IMG/VR virus record: IMGVR_UViG_2541047680_000004
Strand: one strand, 5' to 3'
Length of the DNA stretch: 64,000 nt
Source of the DNA: a virus
Lineage: Duplodnaviria > Heunggongvirae > Uroviricota > Caudoviricetes
Shown: positions 32,437-64,000 of the stretch, piece by piece
Layout: every line of letters starts with the position of its first letter
Numbering within the stretch: the stretch's first letter is position 1
The notes under the pieces: model-generated
What the model was told of the DNA's origin: nothing
Databases searched by the model: none
The model's input: the letters and a program-made list of their open reading frames with translations, nothing else
Translations under genes and position numbers: made by a program

Positions 32437-33327
32437 TTATGCCGGTAAAGCAATTTCTAACGGTTTATCCAAAGGTTGTTTGTCGAATGCCAGCAGTGGC
32501 AGCGTGTCAGGCAGTCGACGGCCAAAGTCAGGGTTTCGGTACACACCATACAACGGAGACGTAAAGCTCAGGTTGTGAATGTCCTTGAGCAGCTTCACAA
32601 TGCTGGCCTCGTCCACCAGACTGTCGGCAATGTCCTGAATCGTCGTGCCACGATTCCGCCCAGCTTTTGCCAGGGAACTGTTCTTGTGGTAGTCCGCCAC
32701 CAGATCACGCAGTGCACGGCGACGACGAGACTCGCTCATTGCGAACAATTCTTTGACGATCGCCTCGTTATCACCCGGGTCGGAACGGAAATGGCGCTGG
32801 AATACACGCAGTGCACTTTCATAGCTCTTCGGTCGCTCAGGGCGGATGAACTTAAACCCTGCTTTCATGGCGAAGGGATTGTATTTGCTCATCGAGGACT
32901 GGATCTCAATGATTGGCCGGTCATGCATCCTGCTAACCAGGTTAATCATTCGATAAGAGACGCCTACGCCACGATACTGAGTATCCACAACTGAGCGACT
33001 GATCACCGCAAAGTTGTTATTCACGTACCGACCCCAGTACTGGTTAGCCACGGTGGTATTAGTGGTTGGTTTCAACTTAGGAAACATGCGGTGGCGAGGT
33101 GCCAGCAGTAGTTTCGGGTAAGCCATAACCACGACGCCCACCAGACGGTCATCAAGTTCGCAGCGATAGTAAGTTGGCGCGAAAGGTTTGCCGTCTGTTT
33201 TGTAGTGAAGCGACTTAAGAGCGTGCCAGTCCTCTACAGTTCCCTTTGTGACAGTCATTCGCTCCAGAAAGTCCAGATGACGCGGAAACTCTTCAGGGCG
33301 GTAGCGTTTAATGATGATGTCCGTCAT
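32437..33327 (-). CDS. GNAT-like acetyltransferase domain protein with C-terminal extension
   Basis: VVDTQYRGVGVSYRMI (R-x-x-G-x-G-like) and NPFAMKAGFKFI resemble GNAT motifs A and B; 296 aa. Confidence 0.45.
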   Translation of the reverse strand: MTDIIIKRYRPEEFPRHLDFLERMTVTKGTVEDWHALKSLHYKTDGKPFAPTYYRCELDDRLVGVVVMAYPKLLLAPRHRMFPKLKPTTNTTVANQYWGRYVNNNFAVISRSVVDTQYRGVGVSYRMINLVSRMHDRPIIEIQSSMSKYNPFAMKAGFKFIRPERPKSYESALRVFQRHFRSDPGDNEAIVKELFAMSESRRRRALRDLVADYHKNSSLAKAGRNRGTTIQDIADSLVDEASIVKLLKDIHNLSFTSPLYGVYRNPDFGRRLPDTLPLLAFDKQPLDKPLEIALPA

Positions 33328-33989
33328 AAATGAACCTCATCATGACTACCATTGTGATATTCCACCTTCACGCGTTCTTTGTAGTGCTTGGTGATCTGCA
33401 TATCCGGGCGCAGCGCGTTCTTCAGGTCTTCGTGAGTCGTCGCCACCATTACCGTCGCACCAACCTTTCGAGCGGCACGCTGGAGGTTAGATGCCACAAC
33501 CTGAGCGGTTACACGGTCTAGAACAGCACCGAACTCGTCAGCAGCCCACACTTTAGCGCCTGACTCAATCAGTTTGGCAATCTTGAGACGATATTTCTGA
33601 CCGTCTGACATTTCAGAAGGCTTGCGAACAAACAGATATGCATCGTTCAGACCAGCCATAGATAACAACCCAAGCGCATCGCTGGTCGTTTTGCCCAACT
33701 GATCGATGACGTTAACCTCATTATCGAAGGTAAAATCATCGATGGAGGCTACAGACAGCCCTTCATCCTTCATCTGTCGTTGCAACTCGCGCAGCACAAC
33801 GGATTTGCCGGAACCGGATTGGCCGGTGATGTACACCACATCGCCCTGCTTCACTTCCAGCTCCAGATTGTCGTAAAGCGTCCACTCTTTTTCGTCCAGG
33901 CCAAGCCCGAACGACTCAGCGATTTCCAACGTGCGCGTGGTTTTATTTACGCGTGTCTGAAACGATACGTTGATGATGTATTTGCTCAT
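33324..33989 (-). CDS. small ABC-type ATPase
   Basis: Walker A GQSGSGKS, signature-like MSDGQKYRL, Walker B VWAADEF, H-loop TTHE; 221 aa, no transmembrane partner adjacent. Confidence 0.8.
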   Translation of the reverse strand: MSKYIINVSFQTRVNKTTRTLEIAESFGLGLDEKEWTLYDNLELEVKQGDVVYITGQSGSGKSVVLRELQRQMKDEGLSVASIDDFTFDNEVNVIDQLGKTTSDALGLLSMAGLNDAYLFVRKPSEMSDGQKYRLKIAKLIESGAKVWAADEFGAVLDRVTAQVVASNLQRAARKVGATVMVATTHEDLKNALRPDMQITKHYKERVKVEYHNGSHDEVHL

Positions 33990-34654
33990 ACAGCCATCTC
34001 CCCGGAAGAGATCTTCTCCGCATATGCCACAAATGCGTCTACCCCGCTTTCTCCCGTCATTTCTTCCATGTGGGCAAGCAAATCACCAACAACAATGGCA
34101 GAGCCAGCAGGAAGCGTTTTAAAGCCCAATACGTCGACAACACGTACTTCTTCCGCTGCAACTTCACGACTGATCTCGGTGTGTTCATCCTTCTGTCGTT
34201 TAGTTTCTTCGCCAAGATCGATAACTAGCGAGTCGGTGTCCATTTCTTCTGTCATGCTGCCAACGAGAACATTCAACTCACGCTCTTCAAAGCCGAAAAC
34301 CTCGATATCGTCCAGAACAAGCGACTCAAGCTCTTTCTGTAGCTTAATTGCATCGTAATCAATGCTGGCAAGTCGGTTATCTTCAAGGCGCTTCGCACGA
34401 ACCTCGTCATCACTGAGATCATCGCGAACAATAACCGGTACGCGCTCAAGTCCAGCAAAAATTGCAGCCTCACGGCGGCCGTGGCCAGTAATAATTACGT
34501 CGTTCTTATCGACCGTAATTGGCTGGTCAAATCCGCGCTTTTTAATGGCTGCGGCTAGATCTCGGATCTGCTGTTCATCATGCTTTTTGGCATTCATCTC
34601 ATAGGGAATAAGATCTGCCGGGTCGCGATATACGATTTCAAACTTTTTGGTCAT
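33986..34654 (-). CDS. ParB/Srx-like N-terminal domain protein
   Basis: motif ITGHGRREAA (GxxRxxA-type ParB box); start set at internal Met overlapping upstream stop. Confidence 0.7.
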   Translation of the reverse strand: MTKKFEIVYRDPADLIPYEMNAKKHDEQQIRDLAAAIKKRGFDQPITVDKNDVIITGHGRREAAIFAGLERVPVIVRDDLSDDEVRAKRLEDNRLASIDYDAIKLQKELESLVLDDIEVFGFEERELNVLVGSMTEEMDTDSLVIDLGEETKRQKDEHTEISREVAAEEVRVVDVLGFKTLPAGSAIVVGDLLAHMEEMTGESGVDAFVAYAEKISSGEMAV

Positions 34655-35334
34655 TACATACGCTCCTTGTAGTAGTCGACCAGCCACACCAGAGCCTCAC
34701 CAGCGTTCTCCATTTCATTACCGGTGTTAATAGCCTGCTCTTTGATGATGTTTTTTATGGTTTCTGCAACACGATCTGACGCATCGAAAGTTACTTTGAA
34801 GCGCATGGTCTGATGTTCCGCCCCCACACGTTCGGTTTTCTCTCGTTTGTCGGTATCGACAGGCTCATCACTACCACGAGACAACGCCTCCAGTGCTTCA
34901 AGGTCGATTGCCGCCTCTTTTGCTAAAACCATCGAGATTTCGTCGTCATACGGGGCGATTTCAGACAGTTGATAGTCAAGTTCTGACTGAATTTCTTCAA
35001 TGAAGCGTTGCAATGCGATTTGGTCGTCTTCACCGTATCGCTCGTTGTCCACCAGTGACATCTGTTTAGCTACGACATCGCTAATTTTGCCCACAGAAAG
35101 CACTGGAACCGTTGAAATTCCTTGCTCAATAGCGGCACGCCAGCGATGTTCGCCGCCGAGGATTTCAAAAAATCCATCTTCAAGTTCACGAGCCAAAATT
35201 GGCTTAAAAAAGCCCAATTTTTCGATAGAACCTTTCAGTTTTTCAAAATTCTGCGCACCAACCGAATTGGTGTTCCAGGTATTCGGGCGAAGGTTGGCAA
35301 CATCAACCTGCAAAATCGTGATTTTTACATCCAT
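34654..35334 (-). CDS. ParB/Srx-like N-terminal domain protein
   Basis: motif ILGGEHRWRAA; first gene of the minus-strand operon; start codon uncertain (ATG at 35334 or GTG at 35352). Confidence 0.7.
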   Translation of the reverse strand: MDVKITILQVDVANLRPNTWNTNSVGAQNFEKLKGSIEKLGFFKPILARELEDGFFEILGGEHRWRAAIEQGISTVPVLSVGKISDVVAKQMSLVDNERYGEDDQIALQRFIEEIQSELDYQLSEIAPYDDEISMVLAKEAAIDLEALEALSRGSDEPVDTDKREKTERVGAEHQTMRFKVTFDASDRVAETIKNIIKEQAINTGNEMENAGEALVWLVDYYKERM

Positions 35335-35352
35335 TTTATTGCTACAATCCAC

Positions 35353-35416: not shown

Positions 35417-36976
35417 ATGACTGTTCGGATTGTATCTAACGCAGTTAATGCGCTTATTTCTGGCGCAGATGACAAGGTAAAGCAACTGGTGCAACAGATG
35501 TTGAGCTACGAAGTCGAGACTGGCGACTGGAAGGGCACAAGCACAATGTTCAACTGGAGTAAAAACTCGTTCCCTGCAGGCTTTGCCAAGCCTGTAGCGG
35601 CGAACTTGAACAAGGCGGGCATCAAATGTGTTCATATCCGCAAAGACAAAGCCCCGGCGCTTGGAAAACCAAATCCGGCGGTTAACCCATTCCCATACAA
35701 TCCTGATTATGCGTATCAGGATCAGACTGTGGAAACACTGGTTCGAGAGGGAATGATGATTGCGCAGATCGCTACTGGTGGCGGGAAATCTAACGTTGCC
35801 TGCAAAGCAGCTGCACGTATCGGTCGAATGACATTATTTTTAACAACCCGCTCTGTTCTGATGTTTCAAATGGCCGAAAACTTCCAGAGATCCATCGACT
35901 ACCGCGCCGAAAATGGCGAACCGTGGTTAAAAGACCAAAAGGTTGGAGTCATTGGCTCGGGTGAGTTCCAGGTATCACGACATATCAACGTCGCTACAGT
36001 TCAAACTCTTGCAAGTTTCCTCGAAGAACCACCACGCGATGCAACACCAGATAAGAAAAGCTACCACCTCAAACGTCGGGAGTTGGTGAAACGCTTCCTT
36101 TCAAGTGTCTCTCTTCTTATTCTGGAAGAGGCGCATGAGTCTTCAGGCTCAAATTTCTATGACATCGCCAGATTATGTGTGAACGCAGACTATCGTCTGG
36201 CGCTTACAGCCACGCCGTTCATGAAGGATTCGACGGAAGCCAACATGCGCCTGATGGCGGTGGCCGGGCGAATTGAAATTAAAGTCACAGAAAAGTACCT
36301 GATTGATCGAGGCATTCTGGCAAAGCCGTACTTCCTTTATCATAAAGTTGCCTACAAGCCAGACGAGGCCAGAATCAAGGCCGAACTTGCCAACAAACAC
36401 CTCAATTTTAGAGTTGGTATGAGCACCGCCTACCAAAAGGCTTATCAGTTGGGGATCGTGTATAATTTGGGACGTAACGAGGCCATTGTTCGCGAAGCAT
36501 TGCTCTATAAGCAACATTCTCTCAATTGTATGACTCTGGTTCGTCTTAAACGCCACGGGCAAATCCTGATGGAAATGATGAAAGAGTCCGGCCTTAGAGT
36601 TGACTTCATCTATGGGGAATCTAACCAGGCGACAAGGCAAGCAAAGCTGAACAGTTTAGCGTCTGGAGAAATAGATGTTTTAATAGGCTCGACTATTCTG
36701 GATGTCGGTGTTGATGTGCCAAGCGTTGGTGCGGTCATTCTTGCTGGTGGTGGGAAAGCAGAAGTTGAAATGAGGCAGCGTGTCGGTCGTGGCTTACGAG
36801 CAAAAAAAAATCAGGCAAACGTGTGTTTTATCACTGATTTCATTGACATTAGCAACAAATACCTGTTGTCTCACTCTTATGAGCGAAAACACATCATCGA
36901 CACCACACCTGGCTTTGCAGAAGGTGTATTGCCTATTGATGGAGCATTCGATTTTGGAGTTCTGAAACGAGATTAG
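35417..36976 (+). CDS. superfamily-2 DEAD/DEAH-type helicase
   Basis: motif I ATGGGKS, motif II ILEEAHE, motif III TATP, motif VI QRVGRGLR; about 100-aa N-terminal extension. Confidence 0.85.
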   Translation: MTVRIVSNAVNALISGADDKVKQLVQQMLSYEVETGDWKGTSTMFNWSKNSFPAGFAKPVAANLNKAGIKCVHIRKDKAPALGKPNPAVNPFPYNPDYAYQDQTVETLVREGMMIAQIATGGGKSNVACKAAARIGRMTLFLTTRSVLMFQMAENFQRSIDYRAENGEPWLKDQKVGVIGSGEFQVSRHINVATVQTLASFLEEPPRDATPDKKSYHLKRRELVKRFLSSVSLLILEEAHESSGSNFYDIARLCVNADYRLALTATPFMKDSTEANMRLMAVAGRIEIKVTEKYLIDRGILAKPYFLYHKVAYKPDEARIKAELANKHLNFRVGMSTAYQKAYQLGIVYNLGRNEAIVREALLYKQHSLNCMTLVRLKRHGQILMEMMKESGLRVDFIYGESNQATRQAKLNSLASGEIDVLIGSTILDVGVDVPSVGAVILAGGGKAEVEMRQRVGRGLRAKKNQANVCFITDFIDISNKYLLSHSYERKHIIDTTPGFAEGVLPIDGAFDFGVLKRD

Positions 36977-37325: not shown

Positions 37326-37748
37326 ATGAAATACTCGCTTCTCCCTCTACTAACGTTACCAGTGTTGATGCTTACCGCGTGCCAATCACGCCCAATATCA
37401 ATCCATGACGCCAAACCAGCACCGCAGGCCAAAGTGTTCAAGTATCAAAGCGCAGCGCCAGCTACGTTGGTGGTAATGAGAGACACAGGTTTTGTAGGAG
37501 CTGGATGTGATGCTTCCATTTTCATCAACGGCGAAACTGTCGCAAAACTGGCTACAGGCGAAAAAGCGACTTTCCATTTAAATGCCGGAGAATTAATTGT
37601 GGGTGCATCTCTTGAAGGTGCAGGTTTATGTGCTCTAAACCCCGCTCGTCAAGAGCGAGAAACGACTCTGAAGAATGGAGACACAAAAGCGTTCAGGGTG
37701 TTCACCAGCAATTCTGGTGACATCGACATTCTGCCAACAACTCTGTGA
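37326..37748 (+). CDS. lipoprotein
   Basis: signal peptide MKYSLLPLLTLPVLMLTAC with lipobox LTAC; start set at MKYSL. Confidence 0.5.
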   Translation: MKYSLLPLLTLPVLMLTACQSRPISIHDAKPAPQAKVFKYQSAAPATLVVMRDTGFVGAGCDASIFINGETVAKLATGEKATFHLNAGELIVGASLEGAGLCALNPARQERETTLKNGDTKAFRVFTSNSGDIDILPTTL

Positions 37749-37752
37749 TGAC

Positions 37753-38277
37753 ATGACAACCAAAGATATTACCTACGGTATCCAAGCTGAACTCTGGCCG
37801 CGAGATTACACTAACGTTGAAAAACTACTGATGTTCTGGCGCAGAGAACAAATTCCTGTAAGGGTCACTCTCGAAGATGGCCAGGCGTTTTGCATGTACG
37901 TTTATGGCCTCATGCCATCTCGTAACAAAGTTGACCTTTGCCCAGCCCCTTTTGACAAAGAAAATCGTATAAGGCTCCCACTTGAACGCATTAGTACAAT
38001 TGAATCAGGTGTGGTTGACAGTATCGCTCACGATTTCAAAGGTCGACTAACAGTTCACCCTGATTATGTCGATAATCGGCCATCACGCCGCGATTTTTTT
38101 GCAATTTGCAACCAAGCCTACAAAGCAAACAAATCTATAAGGGTGTACATGGCGGATGGCCGTGAAATTGAGGGGGTGTCAGCAGGCGCAGATGCTTGTC
38201 AGGTTACACTACGTGTCGAGAACGGTAGAAAAATAGTTGTTTTGTTCGATTGGGTTGAACGAATTTTGCCTTTTTGA
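37753..38277 (+). CDS. hypothetical protein
   Basis: 174 aa from MTTKDITYG; no motif recognised. Confidence 0.45.
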   Translation: MTTKDITYGIQAELWPRDYTNVEKLLMFWRREQIPVRVTLEDGQAFCMYVYGLMPSRNKVDLCPAPFDKENRIRLPLERISTIESGVVDSIAHDFKGRLTVHPDYVDNRPSRRDFFAICNQAYKANKSIRVYMADGREIEGVSAGADACQVTLRVENGRKIVVLFDWVERILPF

Positions 38278-38778: not shown

Positions 38779-38806
38779 TTGCAATCTTTTTTCGCGTATC
38801 GATAAT
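38779..38806 (+). promoter_or_regulatory. sigma70-like promoter of low-GC moron
   Basis: TTGCAA, 16-nt spacer, GATAAT; about 65 nt upstream of the 38872 start. Confidence 0.45.
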
Positions 38807-38871
38807 TGAACTCGTCGAAAGCGAAGACGCTAACGACAATAAATTTTAAATTTACATAAGGAAAAATTATC

Positions 38872-39522
38872 ATGGCTAACATTATCATTTCTAAAAAGTC
38901 CATCATTGAAGCTGCATCTATTGTATCCGACGAGCTGCGCGAAAAAGCAGATCTGGCAACTCAAACATATAACGAACATTATAAAAATGGTACGCACACT
39001 AAAGCAGACAAAGCAAATATGCAAGCTGCGACCACTAAACTTGCTTACTTCATCAACAACGTCGTAAACGCAGTAGAAGACGAAAAATTATGCTCTGTTT
39101 TCTACTATGCGATTAAAGCAAGCAAACAAGCGCCAGAAGTATTTTTCCGTGATGCAATGACTAATAGTTATTCTCTGGAAAAACTGGTTTATCTGGTTAA
39201 ATCAATTAAATCTGGTAAATGCGTTTATTCCGTCGCTGATATGTCTGGATCTCGTGTATTCGCTTTAATCGATATGATTAACGACGAGATCGACACGTTC
39301 ACTAATGGCGCTGTTTTCGATTTAATGAATGAAGCTAAAAAAGCGTGTGAAATTAAATTGGACGCTGGCTATACTCAAGCCAACCAGTTGATCAATCTTT
39401 GCGAACGTCTTGGACTTGTTGAAAAAGTCAAAGGAGCTGGGAGTGCGAAAGCTGGTACTCAGCAATATCGCTTTATTAAAAATGATTTCTACAATTATTT
39501 AGCTGATGCTTTCAAAGCGTAA
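38872..39522 (+). CDS. hypothetical protein (low-GC moron gene 1)
   Basis: 216-aa ORF in AT-rich segment with own promoter and terminators. Confidence 0.5.
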   Translation: MANIIISKKSIIEAASIVSDELREKADLATQTYNEHYKNGTHTKADKANMQAATTKLAYFINNVVNAVEDEKLCSVFYYAIKASKQAPEVFFRDAMTNSYSLEKLVYLVKSIKSGKCVYSVADMSGSRVFALIDMINDEIDTFTNGAVFDLMNEAKKACEIKLDAGYTQANQLINLCERLGLVEKVKGAGSAKAGTQQYRFIKNDFYNYLADAFKA

Positions 39523-39793: not shown

Positions 39794-40024
39794 ATGTTTG
39801 TTCTTATCGCTGGCGTTAACGTCCATAATGAATATTATGTTAATCGCATCGCTGGGATCGCTGGTTACGCTGGGCGCGCAGTCGAGCTTATAGATGAAAC
39901 GACGCGCAAAATTGACTTATTGAGCGACCAGGAGCGAAAAAAAGCAGACGTGAACGACGCTGATATATTTTTAATGTTAAAAGCGTTTGTAGAAATGGGA
40001 TTTGAAATCAGTCTACATAAATAA
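39794..40024 (+). CDS. hypothetical small protein (moron gene 3)
   Basis: 76-aa ORF with RBS-like AAGGAG upstream. Confidence 0.4.
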   Translation: MFVLIAGVNVHNEYYVNRIAGIAGYAGRAVELIDETTRKIDLLSDQERKKADVNDADIFLMLKAFVEMGFEISLHK

Positions 40025-40029
40025 AATCG

Positions 40030-40054
40030 AGCGCCCACTATGGGCGCTTTTTTC
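40030..40054 (+). terminator. rho-independent terminator
   Basis: stem GCGCCC/GGGCGC, loop ACTAT, then TTTTTT. Confidence 0.65.
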
Positions 40055-40075
40055 GTTTCCAATACTCCCACCAAA

Positions 40076-40101
40076 ACGCGCCAATGATGGCGCGTTTTTT
40101 A
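40076..40101 (+). terminator. second tandem terminator (bidirectional shape)
   Basis: stem ACGCGCCA/TGGCGCGT, loop ATGA, T-run after and A-run before. Confidence 0.6.
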
Positions 40102-40472
40102 TTGTCTTTAACTCACTCCAACAACATAAAAATAAGCGCCAAAATAACGCCATAGACGCGCTTTTATATCCTTACCAGTACATACCCATTACTTAACACA
40201 TTAACGCGCTTAAAACGCGTTATATTGCGCTATAGAGTATGGTTAATCATTGGCTTTTAGTCTTGCTTTATGATCCGCGTTTATTTGTCGGCGCGGATCG
40301 GCATTTTGTTTTGTTCCGTATCCGCTCGCGTATTATGTGCGCGTGATTTTTCACATAATCACACCACTTAATCACGTATGTGATTATGCTACGAAAGAAA
40401 TCTGGATGTCTCAGGCGACGAAAGTCATCATAATTTTCCCCGCTCACCTGTCCGACAACCGCTGGTTGGATT

Positions 40473-40480
40473 CCACCAGC
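40473..40480 (-). other. Chi sequence (GCTGGTGG on minus strand)
   Basis: CCACCAGC on plus strand; forms 9-bp inverted repeat with the Chi at 40597-40604 bracketing iteron cluster 1. Confidence 0.5.
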
Positions 40481-40594
40481 TTCCCGATGTTTTTTCTACA
40501 CAAAGGCGAATGCAGCCGTTTCCCGAAAAAATCCTGGCCGTTCCCCGTCGGCTCATGAATACGTTCCTCGCCGTTTCTGAAAATTTCCCTGCGG
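40481..40594. repeat. iteron cluster 1 (direct repeats of GCCGTTTCCCGAAAA-like units)
   Basis: units at about 40514, 40536, 40570 with partial copies at 40488, 40561, 40584; 22-33 bp phasing; ORF-free convergent intergenic region. Confidence 0.6.
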
Positions 40595-40596
40595 CA

Positions 40597-40604
40597 GCTG
40601 GTGG
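40597..40604 (+). other. Chi sequence GCTGGTGG
   Basis: exact octamer. Confidence 0.5.
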
Positions 40605-40640
40605 CTATAGAGAAAGGGCCGTTTCTGGCCCTCTTCTCAG

Positions 40641-41123
40641 TTACACGCCATCAAGGATGTGGATGCGGTTGCTTGCGTATACATTCAGCATAAAGTTAGC
40701 GCAAAACAGTTTCCATGTATCAACGCCAGCGGTATACGTAATGTTTTTGCATTTAATCGCATTGTTGGCGATCCGCATCCCCTGCGATACTGCTTCATCG
40801 TCGGAAAATTTGAACGACGATTGAGTTTTAATCCAGACAGAAATCTGCGTAGCAAACTCAATCAGCTTAGACTGGCAGAATCGCCCGGAGCGTACCGGGA
40901 AGACGAACGTTCCGAATCCAGAATTAACCACATATGCTTTCTCAAATACCCTCGAGTAACGACGATTGCCAATGATGTCGCGTGCAATAATGCATTTTTC
41001 TTGTGCTGACAGTTCTACCGTCTCATTGTCGCGCCATGCACCAAGTACTCGTTTTTCAATGTCAGAGAACGTTACAGCGATATTGCCATGTGCGGGTGCG
41101 TTTACAGTAGCGATAAAATTCAT
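40641..41123 (-). CDS. hypothetical protein
   Basis: 160-aa ORF preceded by family-1 operator and GATAAT-like element. Confidence 0.45.
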   Translation of the reverse strand: MNFIATVNAPAHGNIAVTFSDIEKRVLGAWRDNETVELSAQEKCIIARDIIGNRRYSRVFEKAYVVNSGFGTFVFPVRSGRFCQSKLIEFATQISVWIKTQSSFKFSDDEAVSQGMRIANNAIKCKNITYTAGVDTWKLFCANFMLNVYASNRIHILDGV

Positions 41124-41142
41124 GATTAATTCCTTATCGTAA

Positions 41143-41177
41143 ATAACAAATTGTTTTCTTGTTGGTGTTAATTATCG
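41143..41177. promoter_or_regulatory. family-1 operator/promoter element
   Basis: AACAAATTGTTTTCTTGTTGGTGTTAATTATCG; GATAAT-like -10 on gene strand. Confidence 0.5.
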
Positions 41178-41207
41178 TTGTACGAATAAGGCGTCAAAGT
41201 GGAAAGT

Positions 41208-41280
41208 TGCGGTAGCCGGACGGGAACAGGTGGGTTTGTCGGTTGCCTGGAGGTAAGAGGTTGGTGTTTTTAGCCTGCGG
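41208..41280. repeat. about 70-bp G/T-rich repeat, copy A
   Basis: roughly 75 percent identical to 44385-44455 (shared GGTAGCC..AGGTGGGT..TCGGT.GCCTG..AAGAGGTTGGT). Confidence 0.5.
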
Positions 41281-41473
41281 GAAACAGGATGGTCATTTAA
41301 GGCCACCAATGCTGATGGCCTTAATAATTATCGACCGATTACGCTAAGGATCTTTTCCTCAACTGATTTGTTGTTGCGACTAAACTGCCTTGCGTATCTG
41401 ATGACAGAAGAGGCGTTTTGCTTTCTGACCATCTCGGCTCTTTCCTTCAGGCGTTTCTTGAAATCGCCCATAT

Positions 41474-43294: not shown

Positions 43295-43329
43295 TAAACA
43301 ACATGTTTTCTTGATGGTGTTATTATCGC
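43295..43329. promoter_or_regulatory. family-1 operator/promoter element
   Basis: TAAACAACATGTTTTCTTGATGGTGTTATTATCGC. Confidence 0.5.
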
Positions 43330-43444
43330 AATAACGCACAGGCGAAAAAGGATTTTATTCCGGTGAATATGGTTTTGGCAGTGAGTTTTCAGGTTCAGTA
43401 CCGAGTATACTTTTTACATTATTCTGATTTAGTGGCCGAAGGTG

Positions 43445-43644: not shown

Positions 43645-43777
43645 GCCGTTCCTGAACCGGCATCGAGCCTTTTCCCGAAATCCACACAGGCAACTCGACC
43701 GTTTCCCTGAAAACCTCCAGCCGTTCCCCGAAGGCAACCCAGCCTTTTCTGTAGCGGGATGCAACCTTTTCCCTGTA
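43645..43777. repeat. iteron cluster 2 (six direct repeats, about 22-bp phasing)
   Basis: units at 43645, 43666, 43697, 43719, 43741, 43763 (e.g. GACCGTTTCCCTGAAAA); extra copy near 43470; same family as cluster 1. Confidence 0.65.
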
Positions 43778-44100
43778 TGGACCGAAGGCTGACCGTAGGG
43801 GTTTTACGGGGGATAAAATCAGGAGTTGAATAAATACGAAAAAGGAGGCGACACCCCTCCTTCCCTCCCCACTTATACATACCTGGCTTCTTCGCTATAC
43901 ATGTTGTGTTTTCTTCGTGTTTTATCTGTCTCAACCTCTCTATAGGCGTTAATGCTCACTCCTTCCAGAACCTTCTATACGGCGACTATTTCTGTTGGTG
44001 AATTGGGTGTGTTGTTCTCTCTGTCGGTGTATGTGGTTTCGTTCGTTTTGCGGTGGTTCTTCTATGGGGTGTTCTCGTCGTTTTGGTGATTGTTCTTCTC

Positions 44101-44460
44101 CGTGTATGGAGTAATGGCAGGTGGGCGATTCCTTTCGTTATTGTGTTTGAGTTGTTTGTCTGGAGTGTGTGAAAGGCTTTTGTAGTTATTCGTGTATTGG
44201 GTAATGGCGTTTCCCGTGATTGTTATGTTTCGTGTCTTTTGGGATTGAGAGAAACCTTGCGGTTACAGGCTTCGTTGGGGTTTCAGTGATTCTGGTGTTT
44301 CTTCGCTGTTTGGGTAATGGCGTGTCGTGGGTATCGCGCGTATGAATGTTTTCGGATTGCCTGTGAAAGTTAGGTTGGTTGTCCGGTAGCCTGGGGAGAA
44401 GAGGTGGGTCTTTTCGGTAGCCTGCCATAAAGAGGTTGGTTGTTTTGGGTAATGGTATAT
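44101..44460. repeat. direct repeats in GT-rich ORF-free region
   Basis: CGTGTAT(T)GG(A/G)GTAATGGC at 44101, 44191, 44304 and degenerate copy at 44437; strong G+T excess on plus strand across 43960-44700. Confidence 0.55.
44385..44455. repeat. about 70-bp G/T-rich repeat, copy B
   Basis: pairs with 41208-41280. Confidence 0.5.
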
Positions 44461-44701
44461 GTGTTATTTAGTTGTTTTGTTATGCCTGAAAATAAGTTGT
44501 TTATATGGTTGTGTAACGCAACGGGAGCGATTTTGAGCGTGTGTTTTTGTTGGTAGTGTGTTGAGTCGTCTGTGGTGAAAATTGGACGCTGTGGCGCTAT
44601 CTGCTGCGTAGAATTACGGGTATAAGAAGTGATGTGTGATAACGTCAATTTTTTAGACCAAATCGGGAGAAAGCGTTGATGTTTCGTTGATCTGTTATTT
44701 A

Positions 44702-44728
44702 GTTGTTTTCTTATTGGTATAAACAACC
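44702..44728. promoter_or_regulatory. family-1 half-site element
   Basis: GTTGTTTTCTTATTGGTATAAACAACC; would drive minus-strand transcription into the GT-rich region. Confidence 0.35.
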
Positions 44729-44845
44729 ATAACCTATTGATATTTAATGATGTGATTGCTGGTATGGGAGGGGAGTAGTGGCGATCAACGGGTTCTTATA
44801 GAAAAGAATCAAATTGTGACCGCCATTATCAATAAGTTGCAACCG

Positions 44846-45451
44846 TTAGTTGTTCAGATAAACATTTGGAACACGGACGTAGAACTTACTGTTACCGGTA
44901 AGTTCCAGAGTAATGTTAATGTCATTACCATTGTCTAGTGTAGCCGTCGCTCTATAGAACTTATCAGTTACCTTTTCGTCAATATTAACCTTGATGCATT
45001 TCGCCGCAGTAGAACCATTATGCTCTTTCAGAATAGTTGTCACGACAGGACATGCGGCTTCCTCAATGACGCCATCTTCCTGTTTCGGTATTACAATGAA
45101 GAATACGTAAGCCAGCAAGGTAACGACTATAATAAATGGCAGTCTACTGCTCTTTGTTATAGTCGCACGCTTCCATAGGTAGATTGGCATGAAAACTATT
45201 CCCCATAAAATAGCAGGTGGCTCATAGCCGGATTCCGAAATCGCCATTCTGTCAGCCACTAATAATCCGATGGCAGCTAAACTTCCAATTAATACAGCAT
45301 AATTTGCATACTCTTCGTTCGGAATGCCGAAGCAAATTGGAATAAAAGCTAAAATCCACGCATAAGTGTTATTCAAAGGTTTTTTTTGTTGGTTATTGGT
45401 TTCCATCACATCCATCTCATCACTTAAATTACTTGTATATATTATCAACAT
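44846..45451 (-). CDS. membrane protein (three or four N-terminal TM helices plus soluble C-terminal domain)
   Basis: hydrophobic segments WILAFIPICF, VLIGSLAAIGLLV, AILWGIVFMPIYL, FIIVVTLLAYVFFIV; AT-rich segment. Confidence 0.5.
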   Translation of the reverse strand: MLIIYTSNLSDEMDVMETNNQQKKPLNNTYAWILAFIPICFGIPNEEYANYAVLIGSLAAIGLLVADRMAISESGYEPPAILWGIVFMPIYLWKRATITKSSRLPFIIVVTLLAYVFFIVIPKQEDGVIEEAACPVVTTILKEHNGSTAAKCIKVNIDEKVTDKFYRATATLDNGNDINITLELTGNSKFYVRVPNVYLNN

Positions 45452-46210: not shown

Positions 46211-48244
46211 TTACTTAACCTGGTGGCCAGGTTTAGCACCAGCATCCGGGCTTAACAGGAAGATATCTTTCCCGCCGGGGCCAGCAGCCATCACCATGCC
46301 TTCAGAGATACCGAAGCGCATTTTACGCGGAGCCAGGTTAGCCACCATAATTGTGTGACGACCAATCAGTGCCTGTGGGTCTGGATAAGCAGAACGGATG
46401 CCTGAGAAGACATTACGCTTTTCACCACCGAGATCCAGCGTCAGGCGCAGCAGCTTGTCAGAACCTTCAACAAACTCTGCGTTTTCAATCAGCGCCACGC
46501 GCAGGTCAACTTTAGCGAAGTCGTCAAAGGTGATGGTTTCCTGAATCGGGTCGTCTGCCAGTGGGCCAGTTACCGGTGCGGCTGTGGCTTTCACTTCTTC
46601 TTTGGATGCTTCCACCAGTGCTTCCACCTGTTTCATATCGATACGGTTATACAATGCCTTGAACGGATTCACTTTATGGCCCAGCAGCGGTTGCTGGATA
46701 CCATCCCAGGTCAGTTCTGTATTCAGGAATGCTTCTGCACGTTCAGTCAGTTTCGGCAGTACCGGTTTCAAGTAAGTCATCAGCACGCGGAACAGGTTAA
46801 TGCCCATAGAGCAAATCGCCTGCAGATCGGCATCGCGTCCTTCCTGCTTCGCCACCACCCACGGAGCCTGTTCATCAACATAGCGGTTAGCCAGGTCAGC
46901 CAGTGCCATGATTTCACGGATAGCTTTACCAAATTCGCGGCTTTCCCATGCTTCGCCAATCACTTCAGCGGCATCAGTAAAGGTTTTGTACAGTTGCGGG
47001 TCAGCCAGTTCGCTTGCCAGCACGCCGTCAAAACGCTTGTTGATAAAGCCTGCATTACGGGAGGCCAGGTTAACCACTTTGTTCACGATATCGGCATTCA
47101 CGCGCTGAACGAAATCCTCCAGGTTGAGATCGATATCATCAATGCGCGAAGAGAGTTTCGCAGTGTAGTAGTAACGCAGGCTGTCGGCGTCAAAATGATT
47201 CAGCCAGGTGCTGGCTTTAATAAAGGTACCGCGAGACTTAGACATCTTCGCGCCGTTCACCGTCACATAGCCATGAACAAACAGGTTGGTCGGCTTGCGG
47301 AAGTTGCTGCCTTCCAGCATTGCTGGCCAGAACAGACTGTGGAAGTAAACAATATCTTTACCGATGAAGTGGTACAGCTCGGCGGTGGAGTCTTTCTTCC
47401 AGTATTCATCGAAGCTTACGCTGTCGCCGCGCTTGTCGCACAGATTCTTGAAAGAACCCATATAGCCAATCGGCGCATCTAGCCAGACGTAGAAATATTT
47501 ACCCGGCGCGTTCGGAATTTCAAAACCGAAATACGGCGCGTCGCGGGAGATATCCCACTGTTGCAGGCCAGATTCAAACCACTCCTGCATTTTATTTGCC
47601 ACCTGCTCCTGCAACGCACCGCTGCGGGTCCATGCCTGCAACATTTCGCTGAAAGAGGGCAGATCAAAGAAGAAGTGTTCAGAATCACGCATTACCGGCG
47701 TAGCGCCAGAAACCACCGATTTCGGCTCGATCAATTCAGTCGGGCTGTAGGTCGCGCCGCAGACTTCGCAGTTATCGCCGTATTGATCCGGGGATTTACA
47801 TTTCGGGCAGGTGCCTTTCACAAAACGATCCGGCAGGAACATGCCTTTTTCCGGGTCGTACAACTGAGAGATAGTGCGATTTTTAATAAAACCGTTCTCT
47901 TTCAGGCGAGTATAGATAAGCTCAGACAACTGACGGTTCTCTTCGCTGTGCGTCGAGTGATAGTTGTCATAGCTGATGTTAAAGCCTGCGAAATCAGTCT
48001 GGTGTTCCTGACTCATTTCGCCAATCATCTGCTCCGGTGTGATACCAAGTTGCTGTGCTTTCAGCATGATCGGCGTACCGTGGGCATCGTCGGCACAGAT
48101 GAAATTAACCTCGTGGCCGCGCATTCGCTGGTAACGAACCCAGACATCAGCCTGGATGTGCTCCAGCATATGGCCGAGGTGGATTGAGCCGTTAGCGTAC
48201 GGCAGCGCGCACGTCACCAGAATTTTCTTCGCGACTTGGGTCAT
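46211..48244 (-). CDS. metG: methionine--tRNA ligase
   Basis: 677 aa from [25 protein letters not shown] (HIGH-type) with KMSKS; C-terminal tRNA-binding domain; near-identical to enterobacterial MetG as I recall it. Confidence 0.97.
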
Positions 48245-48401
48245 AGTAGGCATTACTTCTTTGTAGTGAAAAGGGGCTTGATAGTAACAAAATGGCCTTA
48301 TGTCTGCCATGTGATAACAGCATTTCTCATAAATGATTAAATGTCGCAGCTGGAGTACACTACAAGGCGACAATTGCGCAAATTAAAATAAAGGAGACGG
48401 G

Positions 48402-49502
48402 ATGAGCGAGTCCAAATCGCCGGATGCCCTGAGAGCAATGGTAGCCGGTACGCTGGCTAATTTTCAGCACCCAACCCTGAAACACAACCTGACTACGCTT
48501 AAAGCGTTACACCATGTTGCGTTGATGGATGACACACTGCATGTCGAACTAATCATGCCTTTCGTGTGGAATAAGCCTTTTGAAGACCTGAAAGAGCAAT
48601 GTAGTGGTGATCTGCTCCGTATCACTGGCGCAAAGGCTATTGACTGGAAGCTGTCGTACAACATTGCCACGCTTAAGCGCGTCAAAAACCAACCAGGCAT
48701 TAATGGTGTTAAGAATATTATCGCCGTAAGCTCAGGCAAGGGCGGTGTAGGCAAATCGTCCACAGCAGTAAACTTGGCACTGGCTTTGGCTGCTGAAGGT
48801 GCGAAAGTTGGTATTTTGGATGCCGATATCTATGGTCCATCAATTCCAACCATGCTGGGCGCGGAAAACCAACGTCCAACCTCACCGGACGGTACTCACA
48901 TGGCACCTATCATGTCTCATGGCCTGGCAACCAACTCTATTGGTTATCTGGTCACCGACGACAATGCAATGGTGTGGCGTGGACCGATGGCCAGCAAGGC
49001 GCTGATGCAGATGTTGCAGGAAACACTGTGGCCTGATCTGGACTATCTCGTTCTCGATATGCCGCCGGGCACTGGTGATATTCAATTGACGCTGGCGCAG
49101 AACATTCCTGTAACTGGTGCGGTTGTGGTAACTACGCCGCAAGACATCGCGCTGATCGATGCGAAGAAAGGCATTGTGATGTTCGAAAAAGTCGAAGTGC
49201 CGGTACTAGGTATCGTCGAAAACATGAGTGTGCATATTTGCAGTAACTGCGGTCATCACGAGCCAATTTTTGGCACCGGTGGCGCACAGAAACTGGCCGA
49301 GAAATACAACACGCAGTTGTTAGGCCAAATGCCACTTCATATCTCTCTTCGTGAAGATCTGGATAACGGAACACCAACCGTTATTAGTCGTCCAGATAGC
49401 GAATTTACGGCTATTTATCGTGACCTCGCAGATCGCGTTGCTGCCCAAATGTATTGGCAAGGTGAAGTAATACCTGGCGAAATCGCATTCCGCGCAGTGT
49501 GA
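48402..49502 (+). CDS. apbC: Fe-S cluster carrier ATPase Mrp/ApbC
   Basis: P-loop SSGKGGVGKS, CxxC motif (CSNCGH); divergent from metG as in E. coli. Confidence 0.95.
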   Translation: MSESKSPDALRAMVAGTLANFQHPTLKHNLTTLKALHHVALMDDTLHVELIMPFVWNKPFEDLKEQCSGDLLRITGAKAIDWKLSYNIATLKRVKNQPGINGVKNIIAVSSGKGGVGKSSTAVNLALALAAEGAKVGILDADIYGPSIPTMLGAENQRPTSPDGTHMAPIMSHGLATNSIGYLVTDDNAMVWRGPMASKALMQMLQETLWPDLDYLVLDMPPGTGDIQLTLAQNIPVTGAVVVTTPQDIALIDAKKGIVMFEKVEVPVLGIVENMSVHICSNCGHHEPIFGTGGAQKLAEKYNTQLLGQMPLHISLREDLDNGTPTVISRPDSEFTAIYRDLADRVAAQMYWQGEVIPGEIAFRAV

Positions 49503-63784: not shown

Positions 63785-64000
63785 CTGATGAATCCCCTAA
63801 TGATTTTGGTAAAAATCATTAAGTTAAGGTAGATACACATCTTGTCATATGATCAAATGGTTTCGCGAAAAATCAATAATCAGACAACAAGATGTGCGAA
63901 CTCGATATTTTACACGACTCTCTTTACCAATTCTGCCCCGAATTACACTTAAAACGACTCAACAGCTTAACGTTGGCTTGCCACGCCTTACTTGACTGTA
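63785..64000 (+). mobile_element. IS10 (IS4 family) end, partial, continues beyond window
   Basis: sequence from CTGATGAATCCCCTAATGATTTTGGTAAAAATCATTAAG matches the IS10 terminal sequence as I recall it. Confidence 0.85.
63892..64000 (+). CDS. IS10 transposase, N-terminal fragment (partial at window edge)
   Basis: translation MCELDILHDSLYQFCPELHLKRLNSLTLACHALLD. Confidence 0.85.
   Translation, partial: MCELDILHDSLYQFCPELHLKRLNSLTLACHALLDC

Follow-up and report, generated by a model that had tools for sequence, protein, structure and literature searches.

What does a cluster of short direct repeats, bracketed by an inverted pair of Chi octamers, do in a spacer between two convergent genes? 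The question is raised by positions 40473-40604 of a 64,000-nucleotide stretch of DNA from a virus of the class Caudoviricetes (IMG/VR record IMGVR_UViG_2541047680_000004), and "the window" denotes that whole stretch throughout. Judged by its relatives, the window is an SSU5/pHCM2/pMT1-type phage-plasmid: a sequence search with the region 39800-41300 recovered the Escherichia phages CMS-2020a, PhiR41_1 and Cyrano at 97-98% identity, and the spacer that holds the repeats (40025-40640, 616 bp) is a 100% match to plasmid pECOH89 (NC_023916.1). The window is near-identical to pECOH89 and collinear with it from ~30 kb on, yet they are different molecules, the window departing from the plasmid at 44832-45759 and 51064-53282.

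Two phased arrays of one repeat

The spacer, delimited from the open reading frame (ORF) list and from the annotation of pECOH89 and 12 other records, lies between the gene of a 76-residue protein (+ strand, ending at 40024) and that of a 160-residue protein (40641-41123, - strand). Array 1 (40515-40594) comprises + strand copies of the core GCCGTTTCC(C), 22 and 33 bp apart. Its first unit, GCCGTTTCCCGAAAA (40515-40529), is followed after 22 bp by unit 2, GCCGTTCCCCGTCGG (40537-40551; family consensus GCCGTTTCCCTTCGG), and 33 bp after the start of unit 2 by unit 3, GCCGTTTCTGAAAA, which together with an adjoining half-unit, TTTCCCTGCGG (40584-40594), occupies 40570-40594. A fourth + strand copy of the core, GCCGTTTCT (40618-40626), sits in the loop of the intrinsic-terminator hairpin of the 160-residue protein gene (40616-40631, - strand; GGGCC-GTTTCT-GGCCC, then a T-run on the - strand). 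Locating the units by sequence and analyzing their phasing bore out the original prediction of direct repeats, and all of them lie on one strand: the start-to-start distances are 22, 33 and 48 bp, and the first three copies are spaced by ~2 and ~3 helical turns.

Another array built on this motif, with unchanged orientation, is found at a distance of 3.1 kb, inside an unannotated stretch of 1570 bp (array 2, 43645-43785, + strand). Its six units start at 43645, 43667, 43698, 43720, 43742 and 43764, giving spacings of 22, 31, 22, 22 and 22 bp. Both arrays hold at least three direct repeats, as would be expected of an iteron locus with a periodicity of ~21-23 bp, with only ~10 bp of each unit conserved, and their units are not palindromic sites of the parS type. 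When the window was scanned with the degenerate core pattern RCCKTTYCY, 16 matches were found against 7.5 +/- 2.7 in shuffled sequence, and 10 of the 16 fall into two short same-strand clusters; the two arrays are the only clusters in the window, with no dispersed regulon. The chance expectation of the two clusters is ~3e-7 and ~1e-12 (Poisson estimate), and such phased, same-strand copies are far more than chance would produce. As the pattern was itself derived post hoc, conservation in relatives is the stronger argument.

To the right of array 2, beyond a - strand terminator (43839-43865), lies ~1 kb of non-coding DNA (43880-44850) whose + strand is strongly enriched in G and T (GC skew +0.12, AT skew -0.2). 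It contains repeats of its own, namely TGGGTAATGGC at 44103, 44193, 44306 and 44441, and a CGGTAGCCTG..AAGAGGTGGGT motif at 44384 and 44415 that is also present in distant relatives (locus L224, 12390-12470; locus L018, upstream of the gene for the 160-residue protein).

Conservation across the family

Relatives were collected as 83 loci fetched via the 160-residue protein, plus SSU5, and the counts given here refer to 22 representatives that are at most 96% identical; deeper relatives were reached via a 216-residue protein encoded to the left of the spacer (53%, 62% and 33% identity). Whether the repeats recur in related elements was one of the points on which the original prediction was to stand or fall, and they are kept in hundreds of plasmids and phages. 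Among the plasmids of PLSDB, 784 carry a homologue of the spacer; they come from Klebsiella, Escherichia, Enterobacter, Yersinia (pMT1), Salmonella, Citrobacter and Cronobacter.

Within the spacer, the copies of the core are the peaks of conservation, with 8-mers intact in 64-100% of the representatives as against 20-45% for the sequences between cores. Unit 1 is the best conserved (95-100%), followed by unit 2 (77-86%) and unit 3 (64-68%), and TTCCCTGCGG is intact in 91-100%. The spacing of 22 and 33-34 bp in array 1 is unchanged in all 22, and array 2 was detected in most of them and in SSU5. Because the spacing is fixed while the sequence between the cores is free, an array for DNA binding is favored, and we consider it probable that the repeats form a protein-binding array.

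The same features extend to remote members of the family. Repeats of the CCGTTTCC type lie in the spacer that follows the gene for the 216-residue protein in L221, L222, L224 and L229; the two-array layout is present in SSU5 and in the distant L221, L222 and L224, and the first array is present in L229. Unit 1 is retained in L221 and L222, and TTTCCCTGCGGC is also found in L229, whose neighboring protein is 33% identical. A GTTTCC-type core recurs in the terminator loop of relatives, L229 among them. The repeats are still kept in L224, which has a background of 55% G+C, and in L225 (33% G+C, 31% protein identity) they are altered to ACGTTCCCTTTCC and GGCGTTTTGAA.

The spacer as non-coding DNA

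A conserved block of this kind could also be a functional RNA (a protein sponge, a Rho-loading site or a small RNA) or a small-protein gene. The original description of the region as a convergent intergenic region free of ORFs holds in functional terms: mechanical ORFs exist (e.g. 40337-40558), one of which overlaps part of the conserved block, as the small-protein alternative would have it, but indels break them. Between near-identical relatives, single bases are changed in the T6 and A6 runs that lie within the mechanical ORF, and distant relatives carry non-triplet indels in the spacer, which together rule out the small ORF at 40406-40558 and the other mechanical ORFs; frameshifts among such close relatives exclude a conserved reading frame. 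Since 1-nt indels separate near-identical relatives, we take the spacer to be non-coding. Among the 13 annotated records inspected, the spacer is without any feature in 12, and the sole annotation is SSU5_118, a short ORF over terminator hairpins. In two RefSeq records a locus tag is skipped at the spacer with nothing visible there, and neither an Rfam match nor a plausible ORF is present at the skipped position.

The RNA alternative draws on the - strand, which reads UUUUCGGGAAACGGC and is rich in GGA (six GGA motifs in ~130 nt), and on the terminator-like hairpins of the spacer, of which nine were found against 1.8 expected. Against it, an Rfam search of the spacer and four relatives gave no match at the gathering threshold and only chance-level matches at a relaxed one, and consensus folding of the representatives on both strands yielded short, weak hairpins, none of them convincing. 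A DNA-binding array, moreover, and not an RNA fold, predicts a spacing that is fixed at 22 and 33-34 bp while the sequence between the cores is free to vary. A CsrA sponge, suggested by the GGA-rich - strand, was likewise set aside, as the fixed 22-bp phasing of the DNA and the lack of conservation of the hairpins argue against it. With these results we consider an RNA or a small-protein gene very improbable. The only Rfam family found in the whole window is RNA-OUT (RF00240, 98.8 bits; 63830-63899, - strand), which marks the end of an IS10/Tn10 element at the right edge of the window.

Distinction from the plasmid replicon

Two clusters of 22-bp phased direct repeats resemble the iteron sets of P1- and F-type plasmids, in which one set belongs to the origin (ori) and one to an incompatibility locus (inc), and the original prediction regarded the repeats as iterons typical of plasmid or phage origins and incompatibility loci. 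On this explanation the arrays would be the ori of the plasmid, or the incompatibility and copy-control (handcuffing) sites of its Rep protein. The plasmid replicon is, however, located elsewhere: in pECOH89 the RepB-family gene repA occupies 101-1315, a part of the plasmid that the window does not contain, with at least 15 copies of GTATGCTGTCAGCGGTAA (repeat GTATGCTGTCAGCGG) around it on both sides at 21-51-bp spacing, an arrangement that is the classical ori plus inc layout. The degenerate core of the window is absent from positions 1-33491 of pECOH89, the repA region included, and GTATGCTGTCAGCGGTAA shares nothing with GCCGTTTCC. We therefore rejected the arrays as RepA iterons, since motif and locus both differ; RepA-mediated incompatibility or copy control is unlikely because repA has its own, unrelated repeats elsewhere. 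That the arrays are iterons of the plasmid replicon is hardly credible any longer, the sequence having largely refuted it. What stands of the original prediction is a phased, conserved, iteron-like array in a non-coding spacer; what falls is its assignment to the plasmid replicon. Measured against iteron sets of the P1, F and RepFIB type, the likeness lies in the direct repeats that start ~22 bp apart and in the two clusters of one orientation within this element, whereas here the clusters have no Rep-family gene between them or next to them, only ~10 bp of each unit are conserved, and neither DnaA boxes nor an AT-rich block are evident.

A candidate repeat-binding protein

If the repeats are bound by a protein of the element itself, the likeliest binder would be the 216-residue protein (38872-39522, + strand), whose gene heads a promoter-to-terminator unit that ends at the spacer. 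A conserved sigma-70-type promoter-like site (38781-38807, + strand), itself preceded by a terminator hairpin, lies before this gene, and two tandem bidirectional terminator hairpins (40029-40049 and 40073-40098), with stems invariant in 12 diverse sequences, close the unit and form the left boundary of the spacer. The promoter-like site has an extended -10 of the form (T)GCGATAAT / CGATAAT, as does a - strand site at ~43326-43345, which precedes a block of five genes on the - strand and sits inside a longer conserved box, TTGTTTTCTTGNTGGTGTTATTATCGCAAT.

The family of the 216-residue protein is confined to these elements, with 102 matches at 53-97% identity and 24 representatives among 1.84 billion cluster representatives, and no match to it was found at the sequence level in Pfam or the PDB. 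Its AlphaFold model (predicted local distance difference test score, pLDDT, 83) consists of an N-terminal helical hairpin and a C-terminal domain of H-E-H-H-E-E order (H, helix; E, strand; alpha1-beta1-alpha2-alpha3-beta2-beta3). A Foldseek search with this model gave as its best matches the winged-helix domains of Orc1/Cdc6, MukE/F, RTP and MarR/PadR, all of them weak (E >= 0.03); at that level, the predicted topology suggests a winged-helix-type domain. Within it, T168 and Q169 of the putative recognition helix (168-179) are kept without exception in homologues down to 21% identity.

In all loci examined, down to 31-33% identity, the gene lies in synteny with the spacer that bears the repeats, and it keeps its place by the spacer even where the gene for the 160-residue protein on the opposite side is replaced. 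In P0174, the remotest homologue, the helix sequence is different and so is the repeat downstream, CCCTTATA..GCGCATTGG, which may be read as a single, weak hint of co-variation between protein and site. The 160-residue neighbor was rejected as the binder: its model is confident (pLDDT 89) and has no structural match, and in distant relatives the array is kept while the gene for this protein is replaced. No copy of the repeat occurs in the promoter of the gene for the 216-residue protein, and autoregulation is not evident.

A possible origin separate from that of RepA

What would such a complex do? The element encodes its own replication and recombination genes, which are, from their assignments, a T4-like set: a UvsW-like helicase in the window (35417-36976) and, outside it, a UvsX-like recombinase, a gp32-like single-stranded DNA-binding protein, a DnaB-like helicase, a primase, DnaE, a ligase and RNase H, together with an ATPase and metallophosphoesterase pair that is SbcCD-like in appearance. 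Because the element encodes this set, an origin for the lytic mode apart from the RepA origin is to be expected, and with helicase, primase, DnaE, single-stranded DNA-binding protein and the UvsW-like and UvsX-like proteins all encoded, and the RepA origin carrying unrelated iterons, a separate origin is plausible. We tentatively prefer this function for the arrays, as an origin or an origin-control element separate from that of RepA, at prospects that we put slightly under even.

Several results weigh against it. There is no strong AT-rich unwinding block beside array 1, the lowest G+C content over 40 bp (0.30-0.33) lying more than 200 bp off. A scan of the spacer for sites of DnaA and of integration host factor gave one DnaA-box match (40347), which is not conserved, and none for integration host factor. 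The GC skew has no inflection at 40-44 kb and tracks gene orientation. No homologue of a known initiator was detected when a profile of 13 lambda-O-like proteins was run against the window, the fetched segments of pECOH89 and the SSU5 locus (best E = 0.7); Pfam and PHROGs assign no function to the neighboring genes, and a sequence search of the PDB gave no match. The conserved part of each unit is only ~10 bp, as against the longer, 17-22-bp iterons of the classical kind, and the position of the fourth copy within a terminator loop means that part of its conservation is possibly due to the terminator. In the literature searched there is no paper describing the repeats, and nothing on the start of phage-mode replication or on its silencing in the prophage state.

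The DnaA-box-like sequence at 40347, TTTTTCACA, lies together with three copies of TAATCAC (40347-40388; two direct, one inverted) in an operator-like arrangement that is confined to the lineage of the window and includes a perfect 10-bp inverted repeat (40354-40363 / 40379-40388).

Alternatives in gene control and segregation

A protein-binding array need not be an origin. The sites could be operators or enhancers through which nearby transcription of the - strand is controlled, either by the winged-helix-type protein or by a different regulator, with the five-gene unit (43281->40641) or a possible unannotated RNA in 40025-40470 as targets, perhaps through looping between the arrays. The geometry offers some encouragement: the arrays bracket a single - strand block, the five small genes that lie between them, and on the - strand each directly follows an intrinsic terminator (40616-40631; 43839-43865), where a new transcription unit could start. 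Winged-helix proteins are, besides, mostly regulators, and - strand promoter-like sites occur to the left of array 1. Those sites, however, are confined to the lineage of the window, and ~300 bp of DNA that varies in sequence and content separate array 2 from the conserved promoter of the - strand (extended -10 near 43326-43345); for this reason array 2 was rejected as a proximal operator. The repeat is also absent from the promoter of the 216-residue protein gene, and its restriction to two arrays is not what a dispersed regulon would give. We judge a regulatory array unlikely, though by no means negligible. As an observation on transcription in the spacer, the second tandem hairpin (40073-40098) is redundant for the upstream operon and could end an unannotated - strand transcript running out of the spacer.

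The arrays might instead be centromere-like or DNA-organizing sites of a segregation or condensation system, such as one formed by two adjacent ParB_N-domain proteins and a small ABC-type ATPase that are encoded as one block 5-7 kb upstream (33324-35352). This block keeps its synteny with the UvsW-like helicase, the gene for the 216-residue protein and the arrays in all relatives examined, very distant ones included, and a canonical parAB is not annotated beside repA in pECOH89. Direct repeats in two clusters are, in addition, established features of parC1/parC2-type centromeres, and phased short repeats in clusters that bracket genes recall R1 parC, pB171 parC1/parC2 and the heptad arrays of pSM19035. 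In those systems, however, a nucleoside triphosphatase of the ParM or ParA type or an adaptor gene would be expected between the clusters, whereas the genes between the two arrays encode small proteins with no nucleoside triphosphatase or known adaptor domain, and the ParB_N genes are ~5-7 kb away. The ParB_N proteins have no detected helix-turn-helix domain, the ATPase matches ABC_tran and not ParA/CbiA, and the units lack the palindromic form of parS. pMT1, moreover, carries what we take to be its own P1-type parABS elsewhere. A role as a centromere is therefore improbable, though this reading and the regulatory array are the chief competitors of an origin.

The Chi octamers

The repeats were predicted to be flanked by a perfect 9-bp inverted repeat that contains Chi (GCTGGTGG) in both orientations, and the sequence confirms this. 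The left arm, CCACCAGCT (40473-40481, - strand), holds Chi on the bottom strand (40473-40480) at -43 from repeat 1, and the right arm, AGCTGGTGG (40596-40604, + strand), holds it on the top strand (40597-40604) and is intact in 16 of the 22 representatives. Extended to 12 nt, the arms are 92% complementary, with 108 nt between them.

Is this pair a structural inverted repeat around the array (a hairpin, a cruciform or a closing stem), or a pairing by chance? Its perfect complementarity over 9 bp would suit a stem, but as a structure the inverted repeat is unremarkable, since a sequence as long as the window should hold ~35 perfect 9-bp inverted repeats within 150 bp by chance. Chance, too, has points in its favor: given the 12 Chi octamers found in 64 kb, two within 132 bp are not rare (P ~0.24), and the surroundings are dense in Chi, with 163 octamers in ~260 kb within +-5 kb of the array in relatives L017-L099 (25 loci) and up to 10 per 10.5 kb. 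The 12 octamers of the window are, however, more than the 1.4-5.2 expected under Markov models of orders 1-4, and the pair is retained in most representatives: CCACCAGC lies to the left of the repeats in 19, GCTGGTGG at +80 in 16, and both in 15. The right octamer is a local peak of conservation (64-73%), and the left one re-appears at a new position. In most lineages it lies at -88 (-64 after a deletion), and in the lineage of the window at -43 with a diverged intervening segment, so that the octamer at -43 amounts to another, independent copy with unchanged orientation.

These observations also speak against a stem, as the length enclosed by the arms changes when the left arm occupies two non-homologous positions. 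The right arm is lost in pMT1, in SSU5 and in the lineages of L083, L085 and L096, and wherever a mutation has struck one arm, no compensating change is seen in the other (pMT1, CCACCGGC/ACTGGTGG; SSU5; the lineages of L021, L048, L083, L085 and L096). Because mutated arms show no compensating changes, selection would appear to act on the octamer and not on a stem. We therefore regard a structural role or a chance pairing as distinctly unlikely.

In the deeper relatives that keep the repeats (L221, L222, L224 and L229), no Chi is found at these positions. As the bracket is absent there and shows no compensatory changes in closer relatives, it is not a structural part of the array; its distribution indicates that the Chi pair, conserved in the clade from E. 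coli, Klebsiella, Enterobacter and Salmonella, is a clade-specific accessory and not integral to the element. The hosts in the closest records are E. coli, Klebsiella, Salmonella and Enterobacter, and the RecBCD of these enterobacterial hosts reads this Chi octamer. Given the polarity of RecBCD, the left arm would be active for an enzyme arriving from the left and the right arm for one arriving from the right. P1 is a Chi-rich phage-plasmid, and this element resembles such phage-plasmids in its exact, over-represented GCTGGTGG octamers; here the opposite-orientation pair faces outward around a 115-bp array.

A switch in Chi polarity at the array was considered and rejected: counts over +-5 kb at the 25 loci were 29 on the - strand and 23 on the + strand to the left, and 61 on the + strand and 50 on the - strand to the right, which shows no polarity. 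Several Chi in this neighborhood form close pairs of opposite orientation, for example in terminator stems of the form GCCACC..GGTGGC, and some are in coding sequence.

A model for the element

These results can be combined in a model in which array 1, with three to five sites of a 10-bp core on one strand, 22 and 33 bp apart and so on roughly the same face of the helix, and array 2, with six sites 3.1 kb away, would be halves of one two-part element. Cooperative binding of the predicted winged-helix-type protein to the phased sites would wrap or pair the DNA and recruit a helicase, and the origin so formed would serve the T4-like replisome of the element in lytic growth. The outward-facing Chi may act on RecBCD arriving from either side, switching it to RecA loading just before the array and so protecting the array.

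In its most specific form, the model proposes a hitherto undescribed bipartite lytic origin bound by a new, narrow family of winged-helix origin-binding proteins, in which the Chi of this clade convert RecBCD into a RecA loader right at the origin and couple its use to recombination-dependent replication by the UvsW-like and UvsX-like proteins of the element. That all of this should hold together is quite unlikely.

Other genes of the window

Three further gene assignments in the window concern neither the arrays nor Chi. The gene at 37675-38277 encodes a full-length Flag1_repress domain (FljA, repressor of phase-1 flagellin; E = 2.5e-84), and genes for a methionyl-tRNA synthetase (metG, 46211-48373) and an ApbC-type iron-sulfur carrier (48402-49502) are assigned by the annotation of pECOH89.

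Comparison with phage origins

The iterons of phage lambda are bound by the winged-helix N-terminal domain of its O protein, and we searched IMG/VR for comparable arrays with a pattern of two CCGTTTCC copies 21-23 bp apart. Contigs L103, L119, L130, L187, L212 and others, from temperate phages whose closest named relative is Klebsiella phage ST405-OXA48phi1.2, carry lambda-O-like initiator genes (phrog_9773/391) that contain four to five units of GCCGTTTCCATTCGGC with a 22-bp phasing. Each unit consists of a 14-bp palindrome and a spacer, TTTCCATT, and in L103 a ParB protein with a helix-turn-helix is encoded two genes downstream. Of 16 positions, the GCCGTTTCCATTCGGC unit of the arrays in L103, L187 and L212 shares 14 with the SSU5-type unit GCCGTTTCCCTTCGGT, but the shared core and 8-mer were imposed by the search pattern itself, so that the likeness is one of analogy only, with no homology. 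What the contigs do show is that 22-bp phased arrays with a GCCGTTTCC core act as origin-type repeats in the O-like genes of other temperate phages. In those phages the arrays lie inside the initiator gene and are built of 14-bp palindromes, whereas in this element they are intergenic and non-palindromic, and no O-like protein was detected. Homology to lambda-O-like initiators was accordingly rejected, as the hidden Markov model of those proteins found nothing and the match of motifs came from the pattern; hhalign likewise finds no relation between them and the family of the 216-residue protein.

Bipartite origins are known from other phages, in P4 (ori and crr), SPP1 (oriL and oriR) and T4 (oriE, with iterons), where one phage initiator recognizes separated clusters of repeats. 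The two short-repeat clusters described here, together with the UvsW-like and UvsX-like genes, resemble these systems, whereas no homologue of the alpha-type primase-helicase, of G38P or of RepEB was identified in this element. Among phased repeats of the origin or control type, the arrays are best filed as an unusual bipartite layout without a Rep gene and with a family-specific candidate binder.

Implications for the phage-plasmid family

The SSU5-type phage-plasmids include pMT1 of Yersinia pestis, pHCM2 of Salmonella Typhi and many carriers of CTX-M-15 or KPC in E. coli and Klebsiella. The plasmid replicon of the family (RepA, typed as IncFIB) is already known, and the family-wide pair of arrays with its neighboring, family-specific candidate DNA-binding protein supplies a candidate, open to test, both for the cis element that is missing and for its binder. 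If this assignment is true, it would provide a handle for typing, a means of predicting interference between co-resident elements, and a route to curing or engineering them; the arrangement of Chi, if confirmed, would be a natural case of RecBCD management around a phage control region.

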